Below, in pieces: positions 4,128 through 59,334 of a DNA stretch of 64,000 nucleotides; positions within the stretch are counted from its first letter, which is position 1; the number at the start of each line of letters is the position of its first letter. The notes beneath the pieces are model-generated. The model was not told the DNA's origin and did not search any database. It worked only from the letters and a program-made list of their open reading frames with translations. Origin of the DNA: Escherichia phage EC6. Location of the stretch: the sequence record JX560968, one strand, 5' to 3'. The position numbers and the translations under genes were made by a program.

Positions 4128-5480
4128 ATGTGGAATCCAATTGTTAATGTAGATATTACATTGAACACCGCAGGAACTACAAGAGAAGGTTTTGGGCTGC
4201 CACTATTTTTAGCTTCAACAGATAACTTTGAAGAAAGAGTCCGTGGTTACACTTCCTTAACTGAAGTTGCTGAAGATTTCGATGAAAATTCTGCTGCATA
4301 TAAGGCTGCTAAACAACTTTGGAGTCAGACTCCTAAAGTAACTCAGCTTTATATTGGTAGACGTGCTATGCAGTACACTGTATCAATTCCTGATGAGGTT
4401 ACTGAGAGCACCGACTATTCTTTAACTGTAGCTGTGAGCGGTGGAGTTTCTCAGCCATTCCAGTACACTTCACAGTCAGAAGATACTGCTGAGAAGGTGC
4501 TACAGCAGCTTAAAACTCAGATTGAAGCAGAACCTTCTGTAAAAGACCTTGTTACTGTCAATGTAACTGGTGCTGGCGGTTCAGCAACAATGGTAATCAC
4601 CAAAGCTGGTGTCAACGACTTCGTGAAGGTTACTACTACAGCACAAACAGTGTCAATTGCAAGCACAACTGCTGACACAGCATCGACTGCTCTGGCAGCT
4701 ATTGAAGCGTATTCAACTGACTGGTATTTCATTGCAGCAGAAGACAGAACTCAACAGTTTGTCTTAGCAATGGCTTCTGAGATTCAAGCTCGTAAGAAGA
4801 TTTTCTTTACAGCTAACTCCGATGTAGCAGCACTGCAAGGTACAGAATTAGCGAGTGCAAATGATGTTCCAGCACAGCTTGCTAAGAATCAGTACACTCG
4901 TACAGTTTGCTTGTGGCATCACACAGCAGCAGAAGACTATCCAGAAATGGCTTATATTGCTTATGGTGCTCCGTATGATGCAGGTTCAATTGCTTGGGGT
5001 AACGCACAGCTAACTGGCGTAGCTGCTTCTCTACAGCCATCTAATCAGAGACCTCTGACAAGTATTCAGAAGTCAGCTTTAGATGCACGTCACTGTAACT
5101 TTATTGACCTTGATGGTGGTGTTCCAGTGGTTCGTAGAGGGATTACTTCTGGTGGGGAATGGATTGATATCATCCGTGGTGTTGACTGGTTAGAATCAGA
5201 CCTGAAAACTTCTCTGAGAGACTTGCTAATTAACCAGAAGGGTGGTAAGATTACTTATGATGATACTGGTATTACCCGTATTCGTCAAGTCATTGAAACC
5301 TCTCTGCAAAGAGCAGTCAACAGAAACTTCCTGTCATCTTACACAGTTAATGTTCCTAAAGCCTCTCAAGTTGCTTTGGCAGACAAGAAAGCTCGTATCC
5401 TGAAAGATGTTACCTTCGCAGGTATCTTGGCAGGGGCTATCTTGGATGTTGACTTGAAAGGTACAGTGGCTTACGAATAA
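4128..5480 (+). CDS. tail sheath protein (putative)
   Basis: 450-aa ORF followed by a 148-aa tube-sized ORF, chaperone pair and tape measure: canonical contractile-tail order. Confidence 0.5.
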   Translation: MWNPIVNVDITLNTAGTTREGFGLPLFLASTDNFEERVRGYTSLTEVAEDFDENSAAYKAAKQLWSQTPKVTQLYIGRRAMQYTVSIPDEVTESTDYSLTVAVSGGVSQPFQYTSQSEDTAEKVLQQLKTQIEAEPSVKDLVTVNVTGAGGSATMVITKAGVNDFVKVTTTAQTVSIASTTADTASTALAAIEAYSTDWYFIAAEDRTQQFVLAMASEIQARKKIFFTANSDVAALQGTELASANDVPAQLAKNQYTRTVCLWHHTAAEDYPEMAYIAYGAPYDAGSIAWGNAQLTGVAASLQPSNQRPLTSIQKSALDARHCNFIDLDGGVPVVRRGITSGGEWIDIIRGVDWLESDLKTSLRDLLINQKGGKITYDDTGITRIRQVIETSLQRAVNRNFLSSYTVNVPKASQVALADKKARILKDVTFAGILAGAILDVDLKGTVAYE

Positions 5481-6655: not shown

Positions 6656-12054
<5,399 letters not shown>

Positions 12055-18357: not shown

Positions 18358-18555
18358 ATGCCTACAATCCTAGCAATTCTTCTAAAAAATCTAGGTAGCT
18401 TCTTCTGGAAACTCATTTTATCCCTTCTAAGTGAATACATGATTGAGAAAGTGTTCTTTAGACTTGCAAGATACCTTGCGAGTAAAACAGACACACCTAT
18501 TGATGATGAGTTCGTAGATAACTTAGAAAAAGCTTTTAAGGGGGAGAATAAATGA
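18358..18555 (+). CDS. small hydrophobic protein (possible holin-class or fiber-associated)
   Basis: 65 aa, hydrophobic N-terminus, charged C-terminus. Confidence 0.25.
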   Translation: MPTILAILLKNLGSFFWKLILSLLSEYMIEKVFFRLARYLASKTDTPIDDEFVDNLEKAFKGENK

Positions 18556-18923
18556 AGTGGCTAGAGGAAGCTTTTAAAAATAATATTGGTGCAATTGTAG
18601 TTGGTATTTTTAGTGTTATTGGGATGTATACCACCATGCAAGTTTCGGATGGTAAACAAGAAGTGTCTATCACAACAAAGTTACAGCAGTTAGATAATTA
18701 TTCCAAAAGTAATTATTCAGCTATTCGTGATTTACAGTCTGATATGAGGCTGCTTCAGCTAGGGATGGAGAACCAGAAAGTCCAGTTAGAGAATGTTAAG
18801 GGTGAGAACGCAAAACTTACTAAGACTCTTGATAAATTCTCTGATAGTGTAAACAATCTGGCTCAATCAGTATCAGCCCTCCAAGCTATTACTGAAAAGA
18901 ACACAAAGAATACTGAAAAGTAA
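18552..18923 (+). CDS. membrane-anchored coiled-coil protein
   Basis: 123 aa, one N-terminal TM segment (IGAIVVGIFSVIGMY) then coiled coil. Confidence 0.25.
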   Translation: MKWLEEAFKNNIGAIVVGIFSVIGMYTTMQVSDGKQEVSITTKLQQLDNYSKSNYSAIRDLQSDMRLLQLGMENQKVQLENVKGENAKLTKTLDKFSDSVNNLAQSVSALQAITEKNTKNTEK

Positions 18924-51322: not shown

Positions 51323-53690
51323 ATGCGCATGGTAAACGACCACGCAGAAGTGATTAAGAGTTCAACTTCTTTAGAGACGTCTCAGGCACAGATTACAATG
51401 ACACCTGAAATGTTCAGCCTTTTGAGTTCTGGTGTATATACCTTTAAAGAAAGGGCAGTCATTCGTGAACTGTCATGTAACGCAGTAGATGCTCAGAAAG
51501 AAGCTGGAAAAGAGAACATCCCTTTCCATGTGCATTTACCTACTCGTTTTGAGCCTTACTTTGAAGTTCGTGATTTTGGAACTGGATTGACTCATGATAA
51601 AGTTATGAGTTTGTATCTAAACTACGGGGCTTCTACGAAGAATGACTCTAATGACTACATTGGTGCAATGGGTATCGGCTCAAAATCTCCATTTGCAATT
51701 GCTCAGTCATTCACAGTATCTAGCTATGTTGATGGTGTTGTTAATAAGTACTCTGTTTATCTTGAGAATGGTATCCCTCAAGTAACTAAGCTGACTACTA
51801 ACCCAATAAAAGAACCTAATGGTTTAGCTGTACGTGTAGCAGTTGCTGACCATCGTATCTCAAAGTTCTTTGAAGAGGCTGGTCACGTATACTCATACTT
51901 TGCTGTAAAACCAGAAAGTAATATCGAGTATGACGATATATTAGCAGATATGAACGTCATTGCCCGTGAAGAAGGTGTTTATGATGCCATGATTCATAAG
52001 CAAAGCTGGCGTTCTAGTGGTAACAGGACAGAGTTTAATGTGGTGATGGGTAATATTGCCTATCCAGTGAACATGGAAGCATTACTTGGTGATGATTTCT
52101 TCAAAGTATTGCCAGAATTTTTCCGTAGGAGCGTAGACCTTGTAAACATCTACATGCCTATTGGTTCAGTTGCTATTGCAGCTTCTCGTGAAGCATTGCA
52201 GATGAATGACACGACAAAAAACTGTTATCATTGAGGCTACTAAAAAGATAACTGAAGCAATTACAAAGGATGTTATCAAGAAAGTTAACAGTCAACCTAC
52301 ACTTATGGATGCTGCACAGGCTTATGCTGAGTTACGTTTGAACTCACGAGAGATGTTTAATGCTGTGTGTCCAAAGCTAGAGTGGGGTGGTGTTAAGCTT
52401 GATTCTCTGGAAGAAGAATTACTAAACATTCGTCGTGGAATTATCTACGCAGAAGACGGCTCAGTTATCTATGAACGTGATGGTAAAGGTAATATTAAGG
52501 TTGATAGGAACGGAAACAATATCCCTAAAGTAGATTATCTTTATAATCCAGTTGCTTATGTTAAGTTCAACTCTTTAGAAAGTAAGATTCGTGCAACAGC
52601 ACTTTCCTACACTCAAGAGGCAAGTATGTTCAATATCTTTGGCGCAATGCGTAAAAGTCAAATTGAACAGTTTTTGTTTGTTATAAACGACCGTCGCAAT
52701 AAAAATGGTACTGAGAAGACTGTAGGACGCAATCAGATTCTGCGTGGTGCATGTCGAGACTATGCCAGTGAGTCTAGTCTGTTTCACAGATACAACGGTA
52801 TCGTCTTTGTATTCTCGACTGAAAAAGAGTTAGACAACCTAATCAATCTGCACAAACTTGATAAAAGCTTGTTAAAGATTGTGAAGATGTCTGATAAGGA
52901 ACATCATTATCAGCGTAAAGAAGCTGTAAGAGGTGTTGTAAAACTTTGGAAAGCTGTTCCAGCAGAAGGTGTAGCTTCATACAAAGAGGTGTCAGAGGAC
53001 TTAGATACGATTGAAGAACCTCAGCTTTACATTAAGGCAATTGGTGACACAGTTGATGGTGAATGTTTTTGCTCATCTCCAGAAGATGTAGCTAAGTCAG
53101 TTGCTAATGTTACAGGTAAGACAGTCTATGTTTTCCGAAAAGCAAATTGGAAAAAGATACCAGAAGATTGGATTGAAGTAGATGAGAAACTCTTGAACGA
53201 CAGCTTAACTGATGTTCACTGGATTAACCATAACAGATATATGACGCGTATCTATATGAATGGTGTCCTTGACCTTACAAGCAGTTGGATTATTGCCAGA
53301 AACTTTACATTCAATAACAGGAAGATTTCTCGTGGTTATTGCTATTCACGGGATACAAACAAAACTATCTTCCTAGAAGGAAATGAAGAGGCTGTAGAGG
53401 CAATGTTCGGTAAAATCCAATACGTTGCTGCACCGTTTGCATACACTTATACTATTAGTAGATTGCAAACTTTGAAAGAATGTCTTGACAACGATACAAA
53501 GCTGTACAAGAAAATCAAGAAAGCTGGTGACCGTATGGTCATTAAGGTGACAAACTACCTTTCAAAAAGAAAACAAGAAAACTTCTTGCTTTCTCATTTA
53601 GATTGGAATAAAGTGTCACCCATCGAAGTGAGTAAGTTCTTGGGCTTTGATGTGAAGTGTGTTCCAGAAGGGACTACAATTTACGATTAA
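51323..53690 (+). CDS. rIIA: rIIA-like protein with GHKL ATPase N-terminal domain; two overlapping ORFs (51323..52234, 52206..53690) joined by a frame change at A6 run 52216-52221
   Basis: Bergerat-fold motifs ELSCNAVDA, RDFGTGL, GAMGIGSKS; combined about 797 aa; followed by rIIB-like gene as in T4. Confidence 0.5.
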
Positions 53691-54879: not shown

Positions 54880-54896
54880 TAAGTAATTTCTTAAAA

Positions 54897-54918
54897 GGCT
54901 GCTTCGGCGGCCTTTTTT
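54897..54918 (+). terminator. rho-independent terminator with UUCG tetraloop
   Basis: GGCTGC-TTCG-GCGGCC then TTTTTTATTT. Confidence 0.55.
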
Positions 54919-54979
54919 ATTTGTATTTTGTGCAGAGTGCTGTATAATTGTTGTCACGATAAACTAAACAGGAGAACCA

Positions 54980-55528
54980 ATGAAGAAGTTGATTCTAGGT
55001 TTGTGCTTAATGTTTACAGCACACTTATCTTATGCAGTTGACTGCCCAGAGCTATCAATTAGTCAAAAAGTAAACATGTTAAAAGCTTACCAGTATGGTG
55101 AGAATAATATGGGTAAAGGTTGGGGTATCACTCTAGCTGCTATAGCCTTACAAGAGTCAGAGTTAGGTCTGAAGGTAGAGAATAAAAAGACCCATGACTA
55201 TGGTATCTTCCAGAATCACTTGAAGACTGTTGTAAAGCGTAACAAAATCAGTCCTAATGTGGCTAAAAAGAAACTCTTAAAAGATTTTGACTATGCTGCA
55301 AAGGAAACACACAAAGAGCTTGAGTTTTGGACGAAGGTACATGGTCAACCAAAGTCAAAGAAGACTTTACAAAAAGTTTTAGCATCATATAATGCTGGGT
55401 ATTCGTACAAAATTCCTAAAGCTAAGAAATACTCTCAGGATGTCTATAACAATATGAAAGTTATCGCTCAATGTGAATTTGCAACAAACATTTCTAAGGT
55501 AAATCATGAAAAAATTAAGAAAGTCTGA
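54980..55528 (+). CDS. secreted lytic transglycosylase-like protein (SLT domain; candidate endolysin)
   Basis: Signal peptide MKKLILGLCLMFTAHLSYA; SLT-like AIALQESELG...DYGIFQ. Confidence 0.45.
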   Translation: MKKLILGLCLMFTAHLSYAVDCPELSISQKVNMLKAYQYGENNMGKGWGITLAAIALQESELGLKVENKKTHDYGIFQNHLKTVVKRNKISPNVAKKKLLKDFDYAAKETHKELEFWTKVHGQPKSKKTLQKVLASYNAGYSYKIPKAKKYSQDVYNNMKVIAQCEFATNISKVNHEKIKKV

Positions 55529-56201
55529 TGAAGTACTGTGTCATGCTTATGACTTGCATCCTCATGAGTTAGGTCTTGATTCCTGTGTATGGACTCCAGA
55601 ACAGTGCAGAGATTTTGAAGATACTGCAAGAGAAGTTGTATGTTCACTTGAAGAGTTCCACACGCCAGAAACAATTGTGAACGTTGTGGACAAAGAGACT
55701 GGACAATCTATAGGTGTAAGACGTGACAGTTTAGTTATAGTCAATAAAGACCTTGTAGAAAAAGGTAACCTCATCTTAGCAGATATTGATGGTGTTCTTA
55801 CAAATTTTAATCACGAAGACTGCTCAACGGAACTGATTGATGGGTCATTTTCACAGTACACTAATTTGCTTGACTCTGTAAGTGCAAAACCAACGTATGT
55901 TTTCAATATTATTGATGCAATTGCTAACCATGCTGCCATTGGACTCTTGACAGCGAGGGGTGAATCTCAGAGAATACCTACTGAGATGTTTTTAAGGCAT
56001 TACATAGAGCATGATTACATGCTTTTCATGCGTGGTTTTGGAACTAACTCTATAAGTGCAGAAAGTTTAAAAGTTAGGATGATTCAGTCTTGCATTCTTC
56101 CTTACTTTAATATAGTATGCTTTATAGAAGATACAGAGAAGAATGTTCAGAAGGTAAACAGAATCCTTCCACACATTAAAACCATGTTAGTTAAACATTG
56201 A
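55506..56201 (+). CDS. HAD-superfamily hydrolase-like protein (putative)
   Basis: LILADIDGVLTNF resembles HAD motif I DxDG. Confidence 0.3.
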   Translation: MKKLRKSDEVLCHAYDLHPHELGLDSCVWTPEQCRDFEDTAREVVCSLEEFHTPETIVNVVDKETGQSIGVRRDSLVIVNKDLVEKGNLILADIDGVLTNFNHEDCSTELIDGSFSQYTNLLDSVSAKPTYVFNIIDAIANHAAIGLLTARGESQRIPTEMFLRHYIEHDYMLFMRGFGTNSISAESLKVRMIQSCILPYFNIVCFIEDTEKNVQKVNRILPHIKTMLVKH

Positions 56202-56212
56202 GAGAAAAACTT

Positions 56213-56677
56213 ATGAACAATATCATTACGGTAGCACTGGACGATACGACAAACAAATCTGTAGTAGTTCGTAAATTGATTCAAGGTAACTTTGAAGGTA
56301 AAATTTTTCGTGCTGTCAATGTAAAAGCTGATGGCAGCATTCGTGAATATCGTGCATTGTTGAATGTTAAAAAGCACGTAAAAGGTGCTGGTTCAACGAC
56401 TGCACACAAAGAAAACCTGATGACTATTTATGATATGGGTAAGGCTTCAGAGTTAGGTGCTGAAGGTATCGTTAAAGAAGGTGCTCCGTATCGCTCTTTC
56501 AATCTGGAAACTACTCTTATGCTTTCCTTTACAAGTGGTTCTAAAACAATCACTTACCTCTTTACTGATGCTGCAACGGTATCTGCTATTAAGGATGGCA
56601 CTGTCAAAGCTGGCGTAGTTGCTGCTGCAAAAGCTTCTTCGATGGCTGCGAATATCCTTGCTAAAGTCCTCAGTTAA
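56213..56677 (+). CDS. hypothetical protein
   Basis: ATG 56213; 154 aa. Confidence 0.3.
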   Translation: MNNIITVALDDTTNKSVVVRKLIQGNFEGKIFRAVNVKADGSIREYRALLNVKKHVKGAGSTTAHKENLMTIYDMGKASELGAEGIVKEGAPYRSFNLETTLMLSFTSGSKTITYLFTDAATVSAIKDGTVKAGVVAAAKASSMAANILAKVLS

Positions 56678-56688
56678 GGTTAAGATAC

Positions 56689-56710
56689 AGGCTCCTTCGG
56701 GAGCCTTTTT
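56689..56710 (+). terminator. rho-independent terminator with UUCG tetraloop
   Basis: AGGCTCC-TTCG-GGAGCCT then TTTTTC. Confidence 0.6.
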
Positions 56711-56729
56711 CATTTCAGGAGATTGTTAA

Positions 56730-57077
56730 ATGACATTTAAAGAGTTCTGCCAAGATACTTTCATAATTGTTTTCTTAGTTGGAGCAGGTGTCTGGGGAGG
56801 ATACTCTTACAGAGACTACCAAGTTGCTGAAGCTGAGCTAAATAATGAGAAACTAATAAGTGTTGCTAAAGATGCTTATCAGGAAGGTTTAGCCACACTC
56901 AGCACCAATTACAAAAATGATTTGAAAGACGTGCTTGCTAAGAATAAGCACACAAAAGAGGTACTAACATATGAAAAGACTAAGCCAGAGTTTTATAATG
57001 TTTGTGTTACTGATAATTATGTCAGGGTGTTCAACGAACAAAGTGAACAGTACATTCAAAAACTCCCAAGTAAGTGA
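56730..57077 (+). CDS. i-spanin-like protein (Rz-like)
   Basis: N-terminal TM FIIVFLVGAGVWGGY then coiled-coil periplasmic domain; overlapped by a lipoprotein ORF in another frame. Confidence 0.4.
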   Translation: MTFKEFCQDTFIIVFLVGAGVWGGYSYRDYQVAEAELNNEKLISVAKDAYQEGLATLSTNYKNDLKDVLAKNKHTKEVLTYEKTKPEFYNVCVTDNYVRVFNEQSEQYIQKLPSK

Positions 57078-57240
57078 GAGTGACAAGTACACTCAAGAAG
57101 AGTCAAGATTCACTGTCAAAGGTAATACTGGTAGTGATGTGGCAGCAGCCCTTGAGTTTTATCGTGATGGTTTTTACCAGTGCACAATCAAAGCTAATAA
57201 CCTTATTGACATGATTTTATTAGGGAACAAACAGCAATGA
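56971..57240 (+). CDS. o-spanin-like lipoprotein (Rz1-like), overlapping 3' end of i-spanin gene
   Basis: Signal peptide with lipobox-like IMSGC (MKRLSQSFIMFVLLIIMSGCS); AGAGG RBS; starts inside 56730..57077. Confidence 0.4.
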   Translation: MKRLSQSFIMFVLLIIMSGCSTNKVNSTFKNSQVSESDKYTQEESRFTVKGNTGSDVAAALEFYRDGFYQCTIKANNLIDMILLGNKQQ

Positions 57241-58548: not shown

Positions 58549-59334
58549 ATGGGTATTGTAAAAATAATCAATGGTGATATCTTTTCCGCCTTTGATAAAG
58601 GTAAGTTTGACATCATTGGTCACGGCTGCAACTGTATGAACTTAATGGGTGCAGGTATCGCTGACAAGATTTCTAAACTTTACCCAAAAGCATATGAGAC
58701 CGATACAGAAGTTTATTTGTATGCAGGTGGCATAGGCCACAAACCCTGTGAAAATTTACTAGGTAATTTCTCTGTAGCACGTTTAGAACAAGGCCGTATA
58801 GCTAACCTTTACACTCAGCTTAAGACTGGTAAAGATGCCCGATATAGTGCTTTAGAGTCATCTTTGAAACAGCTTAACAGATACTGTGAAGTCAATCAGT
58901 TGAAGAAAGTTGGGTTACCTATGATTGGTGCAGGTATCGGTGGGCTAGACCCTCAAGCAGTCACCGTTATCATTAATCAGGTGATGAAGAGTGTAGATGT
59001 GTATCTGTATGTCTACGAAGGAGAGATGTACCACAAGTTACGCTCAGGTTGGAAGAACTACTGTGAACCAGAATACTTTGCAGGTGTAGTAGTATTCACG
59101 GATGATGCAGTTACCCTCTTCAGACGAAGAAAAGGTAAGATACATCAAAGTAACCCTCCGGTTGAAAAGATGTCTCTAAGTAACGCTCTAGTTACCCACC
59201 TGTCGAAGAGCAATCACAGGATTGCAGTAACATTTGGCAGTGATGCAGATACATATATCTATGCAAGAACTGATGAGGATGTTGAGGAAATTTTCTCTTC
59301 ACAGGAAGTTACCTTCTTAGACGCAAAGAACTAA
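58549..59334 (+). CDS. macro-domain-like protein (ADP-ribose binding/processing, putative)
   Basis: N-terminus INGDIF...FDIIGHGCNCMNLMGAGIADKI aligns by eye with macro motif GDIT...DAIVNAANxxLLGGGGVDGAI. Confidence 0.45.
   Translation: MGIVKIINGDIFSAFDKGKFDIIGHGCNCMNLMGAGIADKISKLYPKAYETDTEVYLYAGGIGHKPCENLLGNFSVARLEQGRIANLYTQLKTGKDARYSALESSLKQLNRYCEVNQLKKVGLPMIGAGIGGLDPQAVTVIINQVMKSVDVYLYVYEGEMYHKLRSGWKNYCEPEYFAGVVVFTDDAVTLFRRRKGKIHQSNPPVEKMSLSNALVTHLSKSNHRIAVTFGSDADTYIYARTDEDVEEIFSSQEVTFLDAKN

Follow-up and report, generated by a model that had tools for sequence, protein, structure and literature searches.

The region 54980-57240 of this Felix O1-like myophage carries, with a probability that we put at about 0.75, two independent envelope-directed functions rather than a single lysis cassette, i.e., an overlapped spanin pair and a predicted Sec-exported lytic transglycosylase-like protein of the T4 Vs.1 family. 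In the nucleotide comparison, the window as a whole, meaning the entire stretch of 64,000 nt that was analysed, is Felixounavirus, with 99.9% identity to phage NBEco005 and 250 Felixounavirus-type records at a query coverage of at least 80%. The three open reading frames singled out in the earlier note (54980-55528, 56730-57077 and 56971-57240) were all found at these positions.

Overlapped spanin pair

A true two-component spanin of the overlapped type is encoded at 56730-57240. The i-spanin gene (56730..57077, plus strand, 115 aa) has an AGGAG ribosome-binding site, and its product matches phrog_1152 'Rz-like spanin' with E 1.4e-41. The single hydrophobic segment of the protein, TFIIVFLVGAGVWGG (aa ~10-24, 56757-56801, KD15 1.97), is followed by nothing hydrophobic and is kept as a transmembrane (TM) segment in relatives, in accord with a type II topology. 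The predicted periplasmic domain of 91 aa contains one conserved cysteine, C92; a single-sequence AF2 model suggested helices at 27-72, at a pLDDT of only 48.7, which is too poor to use. The o-spanin gene (56971..57240, plus strand, 89 aa) lies in the +1 frame, overlaps the i-spanin gene by 107 nt and has its own GAGG ribosome-binding site. Read by rule, its leader MKRLSQSFIMFVLLIIMSG|C ends in the lipobox M-S-G-C (57019-57030) with Cys20 and serine at +2, leaving a mature protein of 70 aa that has one more conserved cysteine (C71) and no proline. The protein matches the PHROG profiles phrog_4180/456. Homologous genes in GenBank relatives bear the i- and o-spanin labels, the latter in JN01, Mijalis, C600M2 and others. 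Some records are without the o-spanin or have its start truncated (AYO145A).

The overlapping lipoprotein frame, its lipobox cysteine and its second cysteine are kept in Mijalis, Hafnia phage SarahDanielle, phiEco32 and Erwinia phage M7, and the overlapping frame with the C-terminal N-x-L-I-D motif of the o-spanin is retained down to 28-34% i-spanin identity. Across five diverged phages the lipobox reads MSGC, ISGC, MSAC or TASC, and position +2 is always serine. Outside the overlap, substitutions relative to Mijalis mostly hit the third codon position of the frame concerned, and their density drops 2.5-fold, from ~25 per 100 nt outside to 10 per 100 nt within the overlap. This shows that the overlap is under dual-coding constraint and that both frames are under selection. 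The pair is thus more than a chance arrangement, since the lipoprotein frame and its cysteines are conserved and the substitutions in the overlap are reduced. The proposal of a type II membrane protein overlapped by a lipoprotein with its own ribosome-binding site was therefore borne out by the profile match, the lipobox, the conserved overlap, the annotation of relatives and the survey of Kongari et al. 2018; of the 'embedded/overlapping' architecture suggested in the same place, overlapped is correct and embedded is not.

The window pair is a direct orthologue of the overlapped spanins of Felix O1 and phiEco32 (the 'JH2' i-spanin family of Kongari et al. 2018; phrog_1152), from which it shows no material difference. 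With Felixounavirus spanin loci it shares 93-100% DNA identity, the sizes of 115 aa and 89 aa, the 107-nt +1 overlap, the lipobox position and the conserved cysteines. Kongari et al. 2018 grouped Felix01, FO1a, wV8, Moogle and phiEco32 as a single i-spanin family and listed (Felix01, FO1a, UAB_phi87) among the groups with overlapped architecture. Like lambda Rz/Rz1, the pair combines a type II inner-membrane protein with an outer-membrane lipoprotein in the +1 frame, has a periplasmic cysteine in both subunits and presumably acts in membrane fusion. In contrast to lambda, where the second gene is embedded, the two genes overlap, no sequence similarity to the lambda proteins was detected, and the pair lies outside any holin-endolysin cassette; lambda Rz1 is short and proline-rich, whereas the mature o-spanin has 70 aa and lacks proline. 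By analogy with the lambda paradigm, the i-spanin would be anchored in the inner membrane through its N-terminal TM segment, and the o-spanin, after export and lipidation at Cys20, would go to the outer membrane in line with the serine at +2. Through the mesh of the peptidoglycan, the two periplasmic domains would bind to one another; when the wall has been degraded by the endolysin, they would complete lysis by fusing the inner membrane with the outer one. The pair is already listed in SpaninDB-type catalogues and annotated in many GenBank records, and as a finding it is largely ordinary and adds little that is new.

Family, leader and fold of the SLT-like protein

The SLT-like gene (54980..55528, plus strand), with AGGAG 6 nt 5' of its ATG, encodes a protein of 182 aa that, judged by sequence comparison, is a member of the T4 Vs.1 family. 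Both this protein and T2 Vs.1 match phrog_600 from end to end (E 1e-57 and 3e-68, respectively), the homologues from Hafnia, Erwinia and Ackermannviridae phages do so at full length, and BLASTP aligns the protein to T2 Vs.1 with 31% identity over ~170 aa (E 4e-16). The family occurs in more than 2000 phage records, and ORF3 of Felix O1 has been listed with a Vs.1 homologue. The window protein and T4/T2 Vs.1 have the same length, an N-terminal leader, the E-S, G-x-F-Q and Y-N-x-G motifs and the same PHROG. The T-even proteins differ in having no Cys22/Cys165 pair, and T-even vs.1 sits between regB and vs, whereas the window gene follows rIIB.

The N-terminus, MKK-LILGLCLMFTAHL-SYA|VD, consists of a positively charged n-region and an h-region of 13 residues, with small residues at -3 and -1. 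From these rules and from conservation we infer that aa 1-19 (54980-55036) form a cleavable Sec signal peptide cut at SYA|VD. All of the full-length homologues that were examined (25) have a leader peptide, another sequence (P0013) being N-terminally truncated; the likely -1 position is alanine in the homologues that carry both cysteines, and the Ounavirinae-type homologues have a small residue at -3 and alanine at that position. Cys22 and Cys165 co-vary: 19 homologues have both, six have neither, and no full-length sequence has one alone, a pattern suggesting that the two are probably joined by a disulfide. We rejected a lipoprotein reading of the leader, since C9 has leucine at -1 and is not a lipobox cysteine.

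The motifs E59-S60, G75-I-F-Q78 and S136-Y-N-A-G140 are those of GH23 enzymes, and in the family alignment E59, Q78 and Y137-N138-x-G140 are invariant and S60 and G75 nearly so. The window protein itself scores 18.8 bits against Pfam SLT (PF01464), below the gathering cutoff of 21.3, and 14 of 15 family members match the same model at E<=0.01, with a best E of 8e-12. The AF2 model (pLDDT 84.8) finds its best Foldseek matches in g-type lysozyme, a GH23 chitinase, EtgA, Cj0843, MltF, Slt70 and phiKZ gp144, and superposes on phage 'SLT domain' proteins with TM ~0.7. A single-sequence phmmer search of the PDB gave no match; the family profile reached EtgA best (E 7e-4) and also goose lysozyme, and an NCBIfam search with all lysis candidates returned only noise. 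On the predicted model, the frame thus encodes a real GH23-fold protein, and the part of the earlier note that described an SLT-like protein with a signal peptide holds through the fold, the conserved catalytic motifs, the Pfam matches of the family and the conserved leader.

The protein resembles the 'specialised' lytic transglycosylases of the EtgA/IpgF/VirB1 type (GH23) in being small (~150-190 aa), Sec-exported by prediction and built of a single GH23 domain. EtgA is its best sequence match of solved structure, yet the identity is only ~17%; a secretion-system partner is not known for the window protein, in contrast to these enzymes, and we do not claim membership. The idea that distant homologues are bacterial secretion-system enzymes was discarded: the contig of the 'Campylobacter coli' match also encodes chimallin, suggesting a jumbo phage, and the two other distant homologues whose contexts were examined are on phage-like contigs. 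As regards Vs.1-family function, our literature search found no enzymatic or localisation study and only a comparative-genomics remark of 2006 on the weak SLT similarity of the family.

Endolysin, holin and transcription units

The main endolysin of the phage is the T4-lysozyme-type (PF00959) lysin known as gp35 of Felix O1 and also annotated 'lysin' in JN01. A search of the window for a lysin of this type gave no match; its gene lies ~7 kb beyond the window end, and so the first reading of the window could not see it. That reading took the SLT-like protein for a secreted or signal-anchored endolysin forming a lysis cluster with the downstream spanins, which we now consider improbable. A signal peptide combined with a GH23 catalytic domain would suit such an enzyme, and some homologues are named 'Lysin' in UniRef. 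The gene also lies near rIIA/rIIB and 1.2 kb from the spanins (the distance from its end, given earlier as 2 kb) in an arrangement conserved across the Ounavirinae. A precedent would be Tgl of the staphylococcal kayviruses, which according to the abstract describing it is Sec-secreted, is called 'an additional endolysin' and bears a distant resemblance to the staphylococcal autolysins IsaA and SceD. By that description, Tgl is like the window protein a signal-peptide-bearing, lytic-transglycosylase-like protein that exists besides a main endolysin and has a host-type promoter, and differs in its Gram-positive host and in being experimentally characterised.

Against an endolysin stands, above all, the separate PF00959-type lysin of the genus, by which the SLT-like protein is not the principal muralytic enzyme. 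Nor is it a canonical cytoplasmic endolysin, which would have no export signal, as it carries the conserved Sec-type leader. A SAR endolysin, taken as a protein with an uncleaved, weakly hydrophobic, Gly/Ala-rich N-terminal TM segment of ~16-22 residues, was considered and, judged by rule, rejected: the h-region has ~13 residues with ~31% Gly/Ala/Ser/Thr, and in the Ounavirinae-type homologues a small residue at -3 and alanine at the likely -1 position come next. The leader is thus neither SAR-like nor anchor-like, because of this short h-region and the conserved SPase I site. T-even phages likewise carry Vs.1 besides gene e; T4 e mutants fail to lyse, and hence Vs.1 does not suffice for lysis. 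In the close relatives C600M2 and CL1, the lysin has been characterised experimentally and computationally, according to the abstract of PMC9156722.

The gene order also speaks against one cluster. An intrinsic terminator after rIIB (54893..54926, plus strand, a 10-bp GC-rich stem with a T-run, annotated there in AYO145A and Mijalis) marks the start of a unit of the SLT-like, polynucleotide kinase-like and hypothetical genes. It is followed by a sigma-70-like promoter candidate (54921..54948, plus strand; TTGTAT, 16-nt spacer, TATAAT) with a perfect -10 element and a -35 element matching at 3/6 positions; the AYO145A record has a promoter 'with 3bp mismatch' at the equivalent place. The polynucleotide kinase/HAD-phosphatase-like gene (55506..56201, plus strand; phrog_3970, E 7e-134) is annotated as polynucleotide kinase in relatives. 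The hypothetical gene (56213..56677, plus strand; phrog_2267, with a weak WYL_2/Sm-like match) starts at ATG 56213, which fits the annotated 154-aa homologues, the mechanical frame beginning at TTG 56198. Neither of the two is a lysis gene. A strong intrinsic terminator (56689..56716, plus strand; AGGCTCC-TTCG-GGAGCCT plus a T-run, annotated in AYO145A and Mijalis) ends 14 nt 5' of the i-spanin start and splits the SLT unit from the spanins, so that the proposed lysis cluster is interrupted by two genes and a terminator.

No holin was established: the two-TM candidates put forward at 18358, 42362 and 45231, as well as the 'holin' of relatives at 18552, match only PHROGs that have no assigned function or bear the generic label 'membrane protein', leaving the three candidates without family support. 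Relatives label the frame 18552-18923, a neighbour of the 18358 candidate, as putative holin. The announcement of phage Moogle credits Felix O1-like phages with a soluble lysozyme, an i-spanin, an o-spanin and a putative holin whose genes are scattered around the genome.

Possible roles of Vs.1-family proteins

We regard the SLT-like protein as most likely an accessory, holin-independent periplasmic muralytic enzyme, as its leader and motifs suggest. Its predicted cleavable Sec signal peptide should take it to the periplasm independently of a holin, and there it would cleave MurNAc-GlcNAc bonds via Glu59, presumably below the level that lyses the cell alone, and so remodel or weaken the wall. 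Expression timing does not separate the gene from the lysis genes, since in published RT-PCR the SLT-like ORF3 of Felix O1 and ORF6 share the 25-min class with the lysin ORF35, a common peak that would also suit an endolysin. The order rIIB - Vs.1-like - PNK - ... - spanin is kept across the Ounavirinae, and therefore some functional link to lysis may exist.

An active periplasmic lytic transglycosylase with a role apart from lysis (envelope conditioning, an effect on superinfection or on lysis inhibition, or anhydromuropeptide release) is a possibility that we raise tentatively. The predicted holin-independent export, the host-type -10 element upstream and the position next to rIIA/rIIB in the Ounavirinae are consistent with it, as is the closest solved relative, EtgA, a 'specialised' transglycosylase that opens the wall locally and does not lyse the cell. 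The Vs.1-like homologues of T-even phages, Ackermannviridae and Vibrio phages, which also argue against an endolysin, point the same way, lying among early or DNA/nucleotide-metabolism genes in genomes with their own lysozymes. However, no partner gene is conserved across families. A general linkage of rII and Vs.1 was rejected, the Ackermannviridae context being gp46-like/NrdA.1 and that of the Vibrio phage nrdB/topoisomerase, so that the rIIB linkage is confined to the Ounavirinae.

It is highly improbable that the protein is an inactive peptidoglycan binder or a virion-associated, wall-degrading entry enzyme. The score under the Pfam threshold and the many phage SLT domains that are virion proteins, tape-measure and tail lysozymes among the structural matches, would agree with this, but the catalytic glutamate and the G-x-x-Q and Y-N-x-G motifs do not vary within the family, virion assembly in the cytoplasm cannot be reconciled with a cleavable export signal, and gp3 was not detected in the published virion proteome of Felix O1.

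The main yield of the analysis is corrective. The label of the SLT-like gene should become 'Vs.1-family secreted lytic transglycosylase-like protein' instead of endolysin or hypothetical protein, the o-spanin is absent or shortened in several database records, and the true endolysin of the phage is encoded beyond the window. By prediction, the Vs.1 family consists of Sec-exported GH23 proteins, which large virulent phages of the T-even, Vi1-like, Felix O1-like and other types retain beside their normal endolysins. We would suggest, with considerable doubt, that Vs.1-family proteins are conserved, holin-independent, Sec-exported effectors cutting peptidoglycan during infection, and perhaps no lysis enzymes at all; possible purposes would be lysis timing or inhibition, a superinfection block, and peptidoglycan recycling or envelope stress signalling. 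If true, a gene that more than 2000 sequenced virulent phages carry, T4 included, would thereby gain a function.

The overlapping spanin pair

The 2.7-kb region around the genes considered here shares 99.9% identity with phage NBEco005 and 90-99% identity with over 200 myophages of the Felix O1 type (Felixounavirus) from Escherichia, Salmonella, Shigella and Citrobacter. When its ends are placed on Escherichia phage JN01, the window begins in the head genes (45.9 kb), passes the genome end and stops near 22.8 kb. All three ORFs that the earlier note had linked to lysis are present, i.e., the gene for an SLT-like protein (54980-55528, 182 aa, AGGAG 6 nt upstream), the i-spanin gene (56730-57077, 115 aa, with a single N-terminal hydrophobic segment, TFIIVFLVGAGVWGG) and the o-spanin gene (56971-57240, 89 aa), which lies in the +1 frame, overlaps the i-spanin ORF by 107 nt and has its own GAGG. 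The o-spanin has a lipoprotein-type leader, whose terminal lipobox M-S-G-C is followed by Ser at +2, and the mature protein is long (70 aa) and without proline compared with lambda Rz1. The i-spanin matches phrog_1152 'Rz-like spanin' (E 1.4e-41), and the o-spanin falls in phrog_4180 with a weaker match to spanin PHROG 456; for the i-spanin, a putative coiled-coil protein in the earlier note, the single-sequence structure model was poor (pLDDT 48.7).

Spanin loci were extracted from four diverged phages, in which i-spanin identity was 76% (Citrobacter phage Mijalis), 39% (Hafnia phage SarahDanielle), 34% (phiEco32) and 28% (Erwinia phage M7). All four have a +1-frame ORF starting within the i-spanin gene, and their o-spanins keep a lipobox (ISGC, MSGC, MSAC or TASC, Ser at +2 throughout), a second conserved Cys (FYQC, FYEC, YTEC or YFTC) and the C-terminal N-x-L-I-D motif, with one periplasmic Cys of the i-spanin also retained. 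Against Mijalis, 37 of 62 substitutions in the i-only part and 26 of 39 in the o-only part fall at third positions of the i-frame and o-frame, respectively, and substitution density drops from about 25 per 100 nt outside the overlap to 10 inside, as expected from dual coding; both spanin frames are under selection. The only stretch with DNA similarity to the phiEco32-like podophages (Kuravirus, 80-85% identity) is 56970-57037, 68 nt covering the C-terminal part of the i-spanin and the signal and lipobox of the o-spanin. Similarity is confined to the overlap because of the dual-coding constraint, and this conservation is consistent with a common spanin family under double constraint.

The spanin pair is thus real, and it is already known. 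Many GenBank relatives carry i-spanin/o-spanin labels, the Moogle genome announcement describes a soluble lysozyme endolysin, i-spanin, o-spanin and putative holin scattered in Felix O1-like genomes, and Kongari et al. (2018) assign Felix01, FO1a, wV8, Moogle and phiEco32 to a single i-spanin family and count (Felix01, FO1a, UAB_phi87) among the groups of overlapped architecture. In RefSeq NC_028825 (AYO145A, 5143-5340), the o-spanin homologue is called hypothetical with a start 72 nt too late, which drops the signal peptide and lipobox present in the window. In a 2021 Felixounavirus comparison, one phage is said to have 'only the i-spanin'; its o-spanin was probably overlooked in a similar way. 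By analogy with lambda Rz/Rz1, the inner-membrane-anchored i-spanin and the outer-membrane lipoprotein o-spanin would very probably form a periplasm-spanning complex that fuses the inner and outer membranes after peptidoglycan removal.

The SLT-like protein, its family and its export

The window protein is sub-threshold for Pfam SLT (E 0.0012; 18.8 bits, cutoff 21.3) and matches PHROG 600, a family without assigned function. The SLT domain had nevertheless been recognized correctly, as Pfam SLT is matched by 14 of 15 family members (best E 8e-12), and both the catalytic motifs and the modelled fold agree. In the family alignment, E59, Q78 and Y137-N138-x-G140 are invariant and S60 and G75 nearly so; E59-S60, G75/Q78 and Y137-N138-x-G140 correspond to the three motifs by which family-1 lytic transglycosylases are recognized. 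Among solved structures, the family profile matched EtgA (E 7e-4) and goose lysozyme, while the AlphaFold model (pLDDT 84.8, core >90) resembles g-type lysozymes, GH23 chitinase, EtgA, Cj0843, MltF, Slt70 and phiKZ gp144, as well as phage 'SLT domain' proteins (TM ~0.7).

The protein almost certainly belongs to the T4 Vs.1 family. In a supplementary table to the Felix O1 genome paper, its orthologue ORF3 (182 aa) has 'Vs.1' from Aeromonas phage Aeh1 entered as homologue, BLASTP against T2 Vs.1 gives 31% identity (E 4e-16), and T2 Vs.1 and homologues from Hafnia, Erwinia and Ackermannviridae phages match phrog_600 end to end. With tblastn the family was detected in 2127 phage records, among them T-even phages, Klebsiella, Acinetobacter, Vibrio and Aeromonas T4-likes, Vi1-like phages and Ounavirinae. 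Earlier literature on the family includes Nolan et al.; no functional study was found in the literature searched. A 100% identical protein is encoded in MG065668.1 ('Campylobacter phage A126', 43 kb), which suggests a mislabelled or contaminating contig of Felixounavirus sequence. A distant homologue at 8001-8582 of a 215-kb 'Campylobacter coli' contig (GCA_053226485.1) lies 1.4 kb from a gene for chimallin, the PhiKZ-type phage nucleus shell, so that this bacterial entry probably represents a jumbo phage of the nucleus-forming kind.

The proposed signal peptide is also supported. The N-terminus, MKK-LILGLCLMFTAHL-SYA/VD, carries two positive charges ahead of a hydrophobic core of 13 residues, with small residues at -3/-1, and a positive start followed by a hydrophobic run was seen in 25 of 25 full-length homologues examined, the N-terminally truncated P0013 lying outside this set. 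One Cys at the mature N-terminus and one near the C-terminus occur together in 19 homologues and are both absent in 6, no full-length homologue having a single one; where both are present, Ala occupies the likely -1 position. This pattern suggests a structural disulfide, which would therefore imply an oxidising (periplasmic) location. A SAR or anchor domain, which would need a longer h-region with more Gly/Ala, was rejected, as was a lipoprotein, since C9 lies outside any lipobox.

Genomic context and the endolysin question

Whereas the spanins, SLT domain and signal peptide of the earlier interpretation hold, its 'cluster' and 'endolysin' do not find support. The SLT-like gene lies apart from the spanins, in its own unit with a PNK-like and a hypothetical gene, bracketed by strong intrinsic terminators at 54893-54916 and 56689-56706, the latter 14 nt upstream of the ribosome-binding site of the i-spanin gene. 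Ahead of the SLT-like gene there is a perfect TATAAT, combined with a weak -35. The order rIIB, Vs.1-like, PNK, one to three genes, i/o-spanin is kept across Ounavirinae, not beyond; elsewhere, members of the family are surrounded by early genes or genes of nucleotide metabolism (regB-vs.1-vs in T2, gp46-like/NrdA.1 in an Ackermannviridae phage, nrdB/topoisomerase II in a Vibrio phage). The window also carries a macro-domain/'phosphatase' gene (58549-59334), whose Felix O1 orthologue, gp13, is given as Tk.4-like. In phiEco32 the spanins are followed by a macro or Appr-1-p gene, and in T2 tk.4 is found two genes past vs.1. Genes for Vs.1, spanins and macro domains show a loose, recurrent association. 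An 86-aa antisense ORF (56453-56713, minus strand; JN01 CDS QHJ72550.1) across the hypothetical gene and terminator is probably a spurious call. The rIIA gene (51323-53690) is split into ORFs of 303 and 494 aa by a +1 frameshift near 52222, where an extra C follows an A6 run relative to JN01 (GACAAAAAACTG versus GACAAAAAA-TG); the homopolymer may have been misread in sequencing, or the phage is a true rIIA mutant.

Felix O1-like phages have a separate lysozyme (Felix O1 gp35, PF00959/cd00737). Its JN01 equivalent, a 154-aa 'lysin' at 30.2 kb, had no tblastn match in the window, whose right end falls short of the gene, and was therefore invisible to a reading of the window alone. T-even phages carry Vs.1 besides gene e, and T4 e mutants are known not to lyse, so Vs.1 is insufficient for lysis; other Vs.1-family carriers have separate lysozymes too. 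The lysin of C600M2 and CL1, two close relatives, is reported to have been characterised by experiment and computation (PMC9156722). As to holins, the 123-aa product of 18552-18923 (N-terminal transmembrane segment, long helical C-terminal part; phrog_4038, function unassigned) is 98% identical to the JN01 'holin' and so named in relatives, but an i-spanin or T4-T-like protein would have a similar topology. It is preceded by a 65-aa hydrophobic ORF (18358-18555, phrog_402) with an ATGA stop/start overlap; PHROG assignment gave no family-level holin support for either.

We propose, with a probability of about 0.5, that the Vs.1-like protein is an accessory periplasmic muralytic enzyme. It would be exported by Sec, cleaved after A19, possibly disulfide-bonded, and would cut glycan strands in a Glu59-dependent manner, sub-lytic on its own. 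Precedents are Kayvirus Tgl, an additional lytic enzyme that is secreted by Sec and has a host-type promoter, and EtgA, a 'specialised' transglycosylase. A non-lysis role, e.g., envelope conditioning, superinfection control or muropeptide signalling, is possible. In Felix O1, gp3 was not detected in the virion proteome, and RT-PCR assigns a single class, '25 min', to ORFs 1, 3, 4, 6 and 35; as ORF3 shares it with the lysin ORF35, timing does not discriminate.
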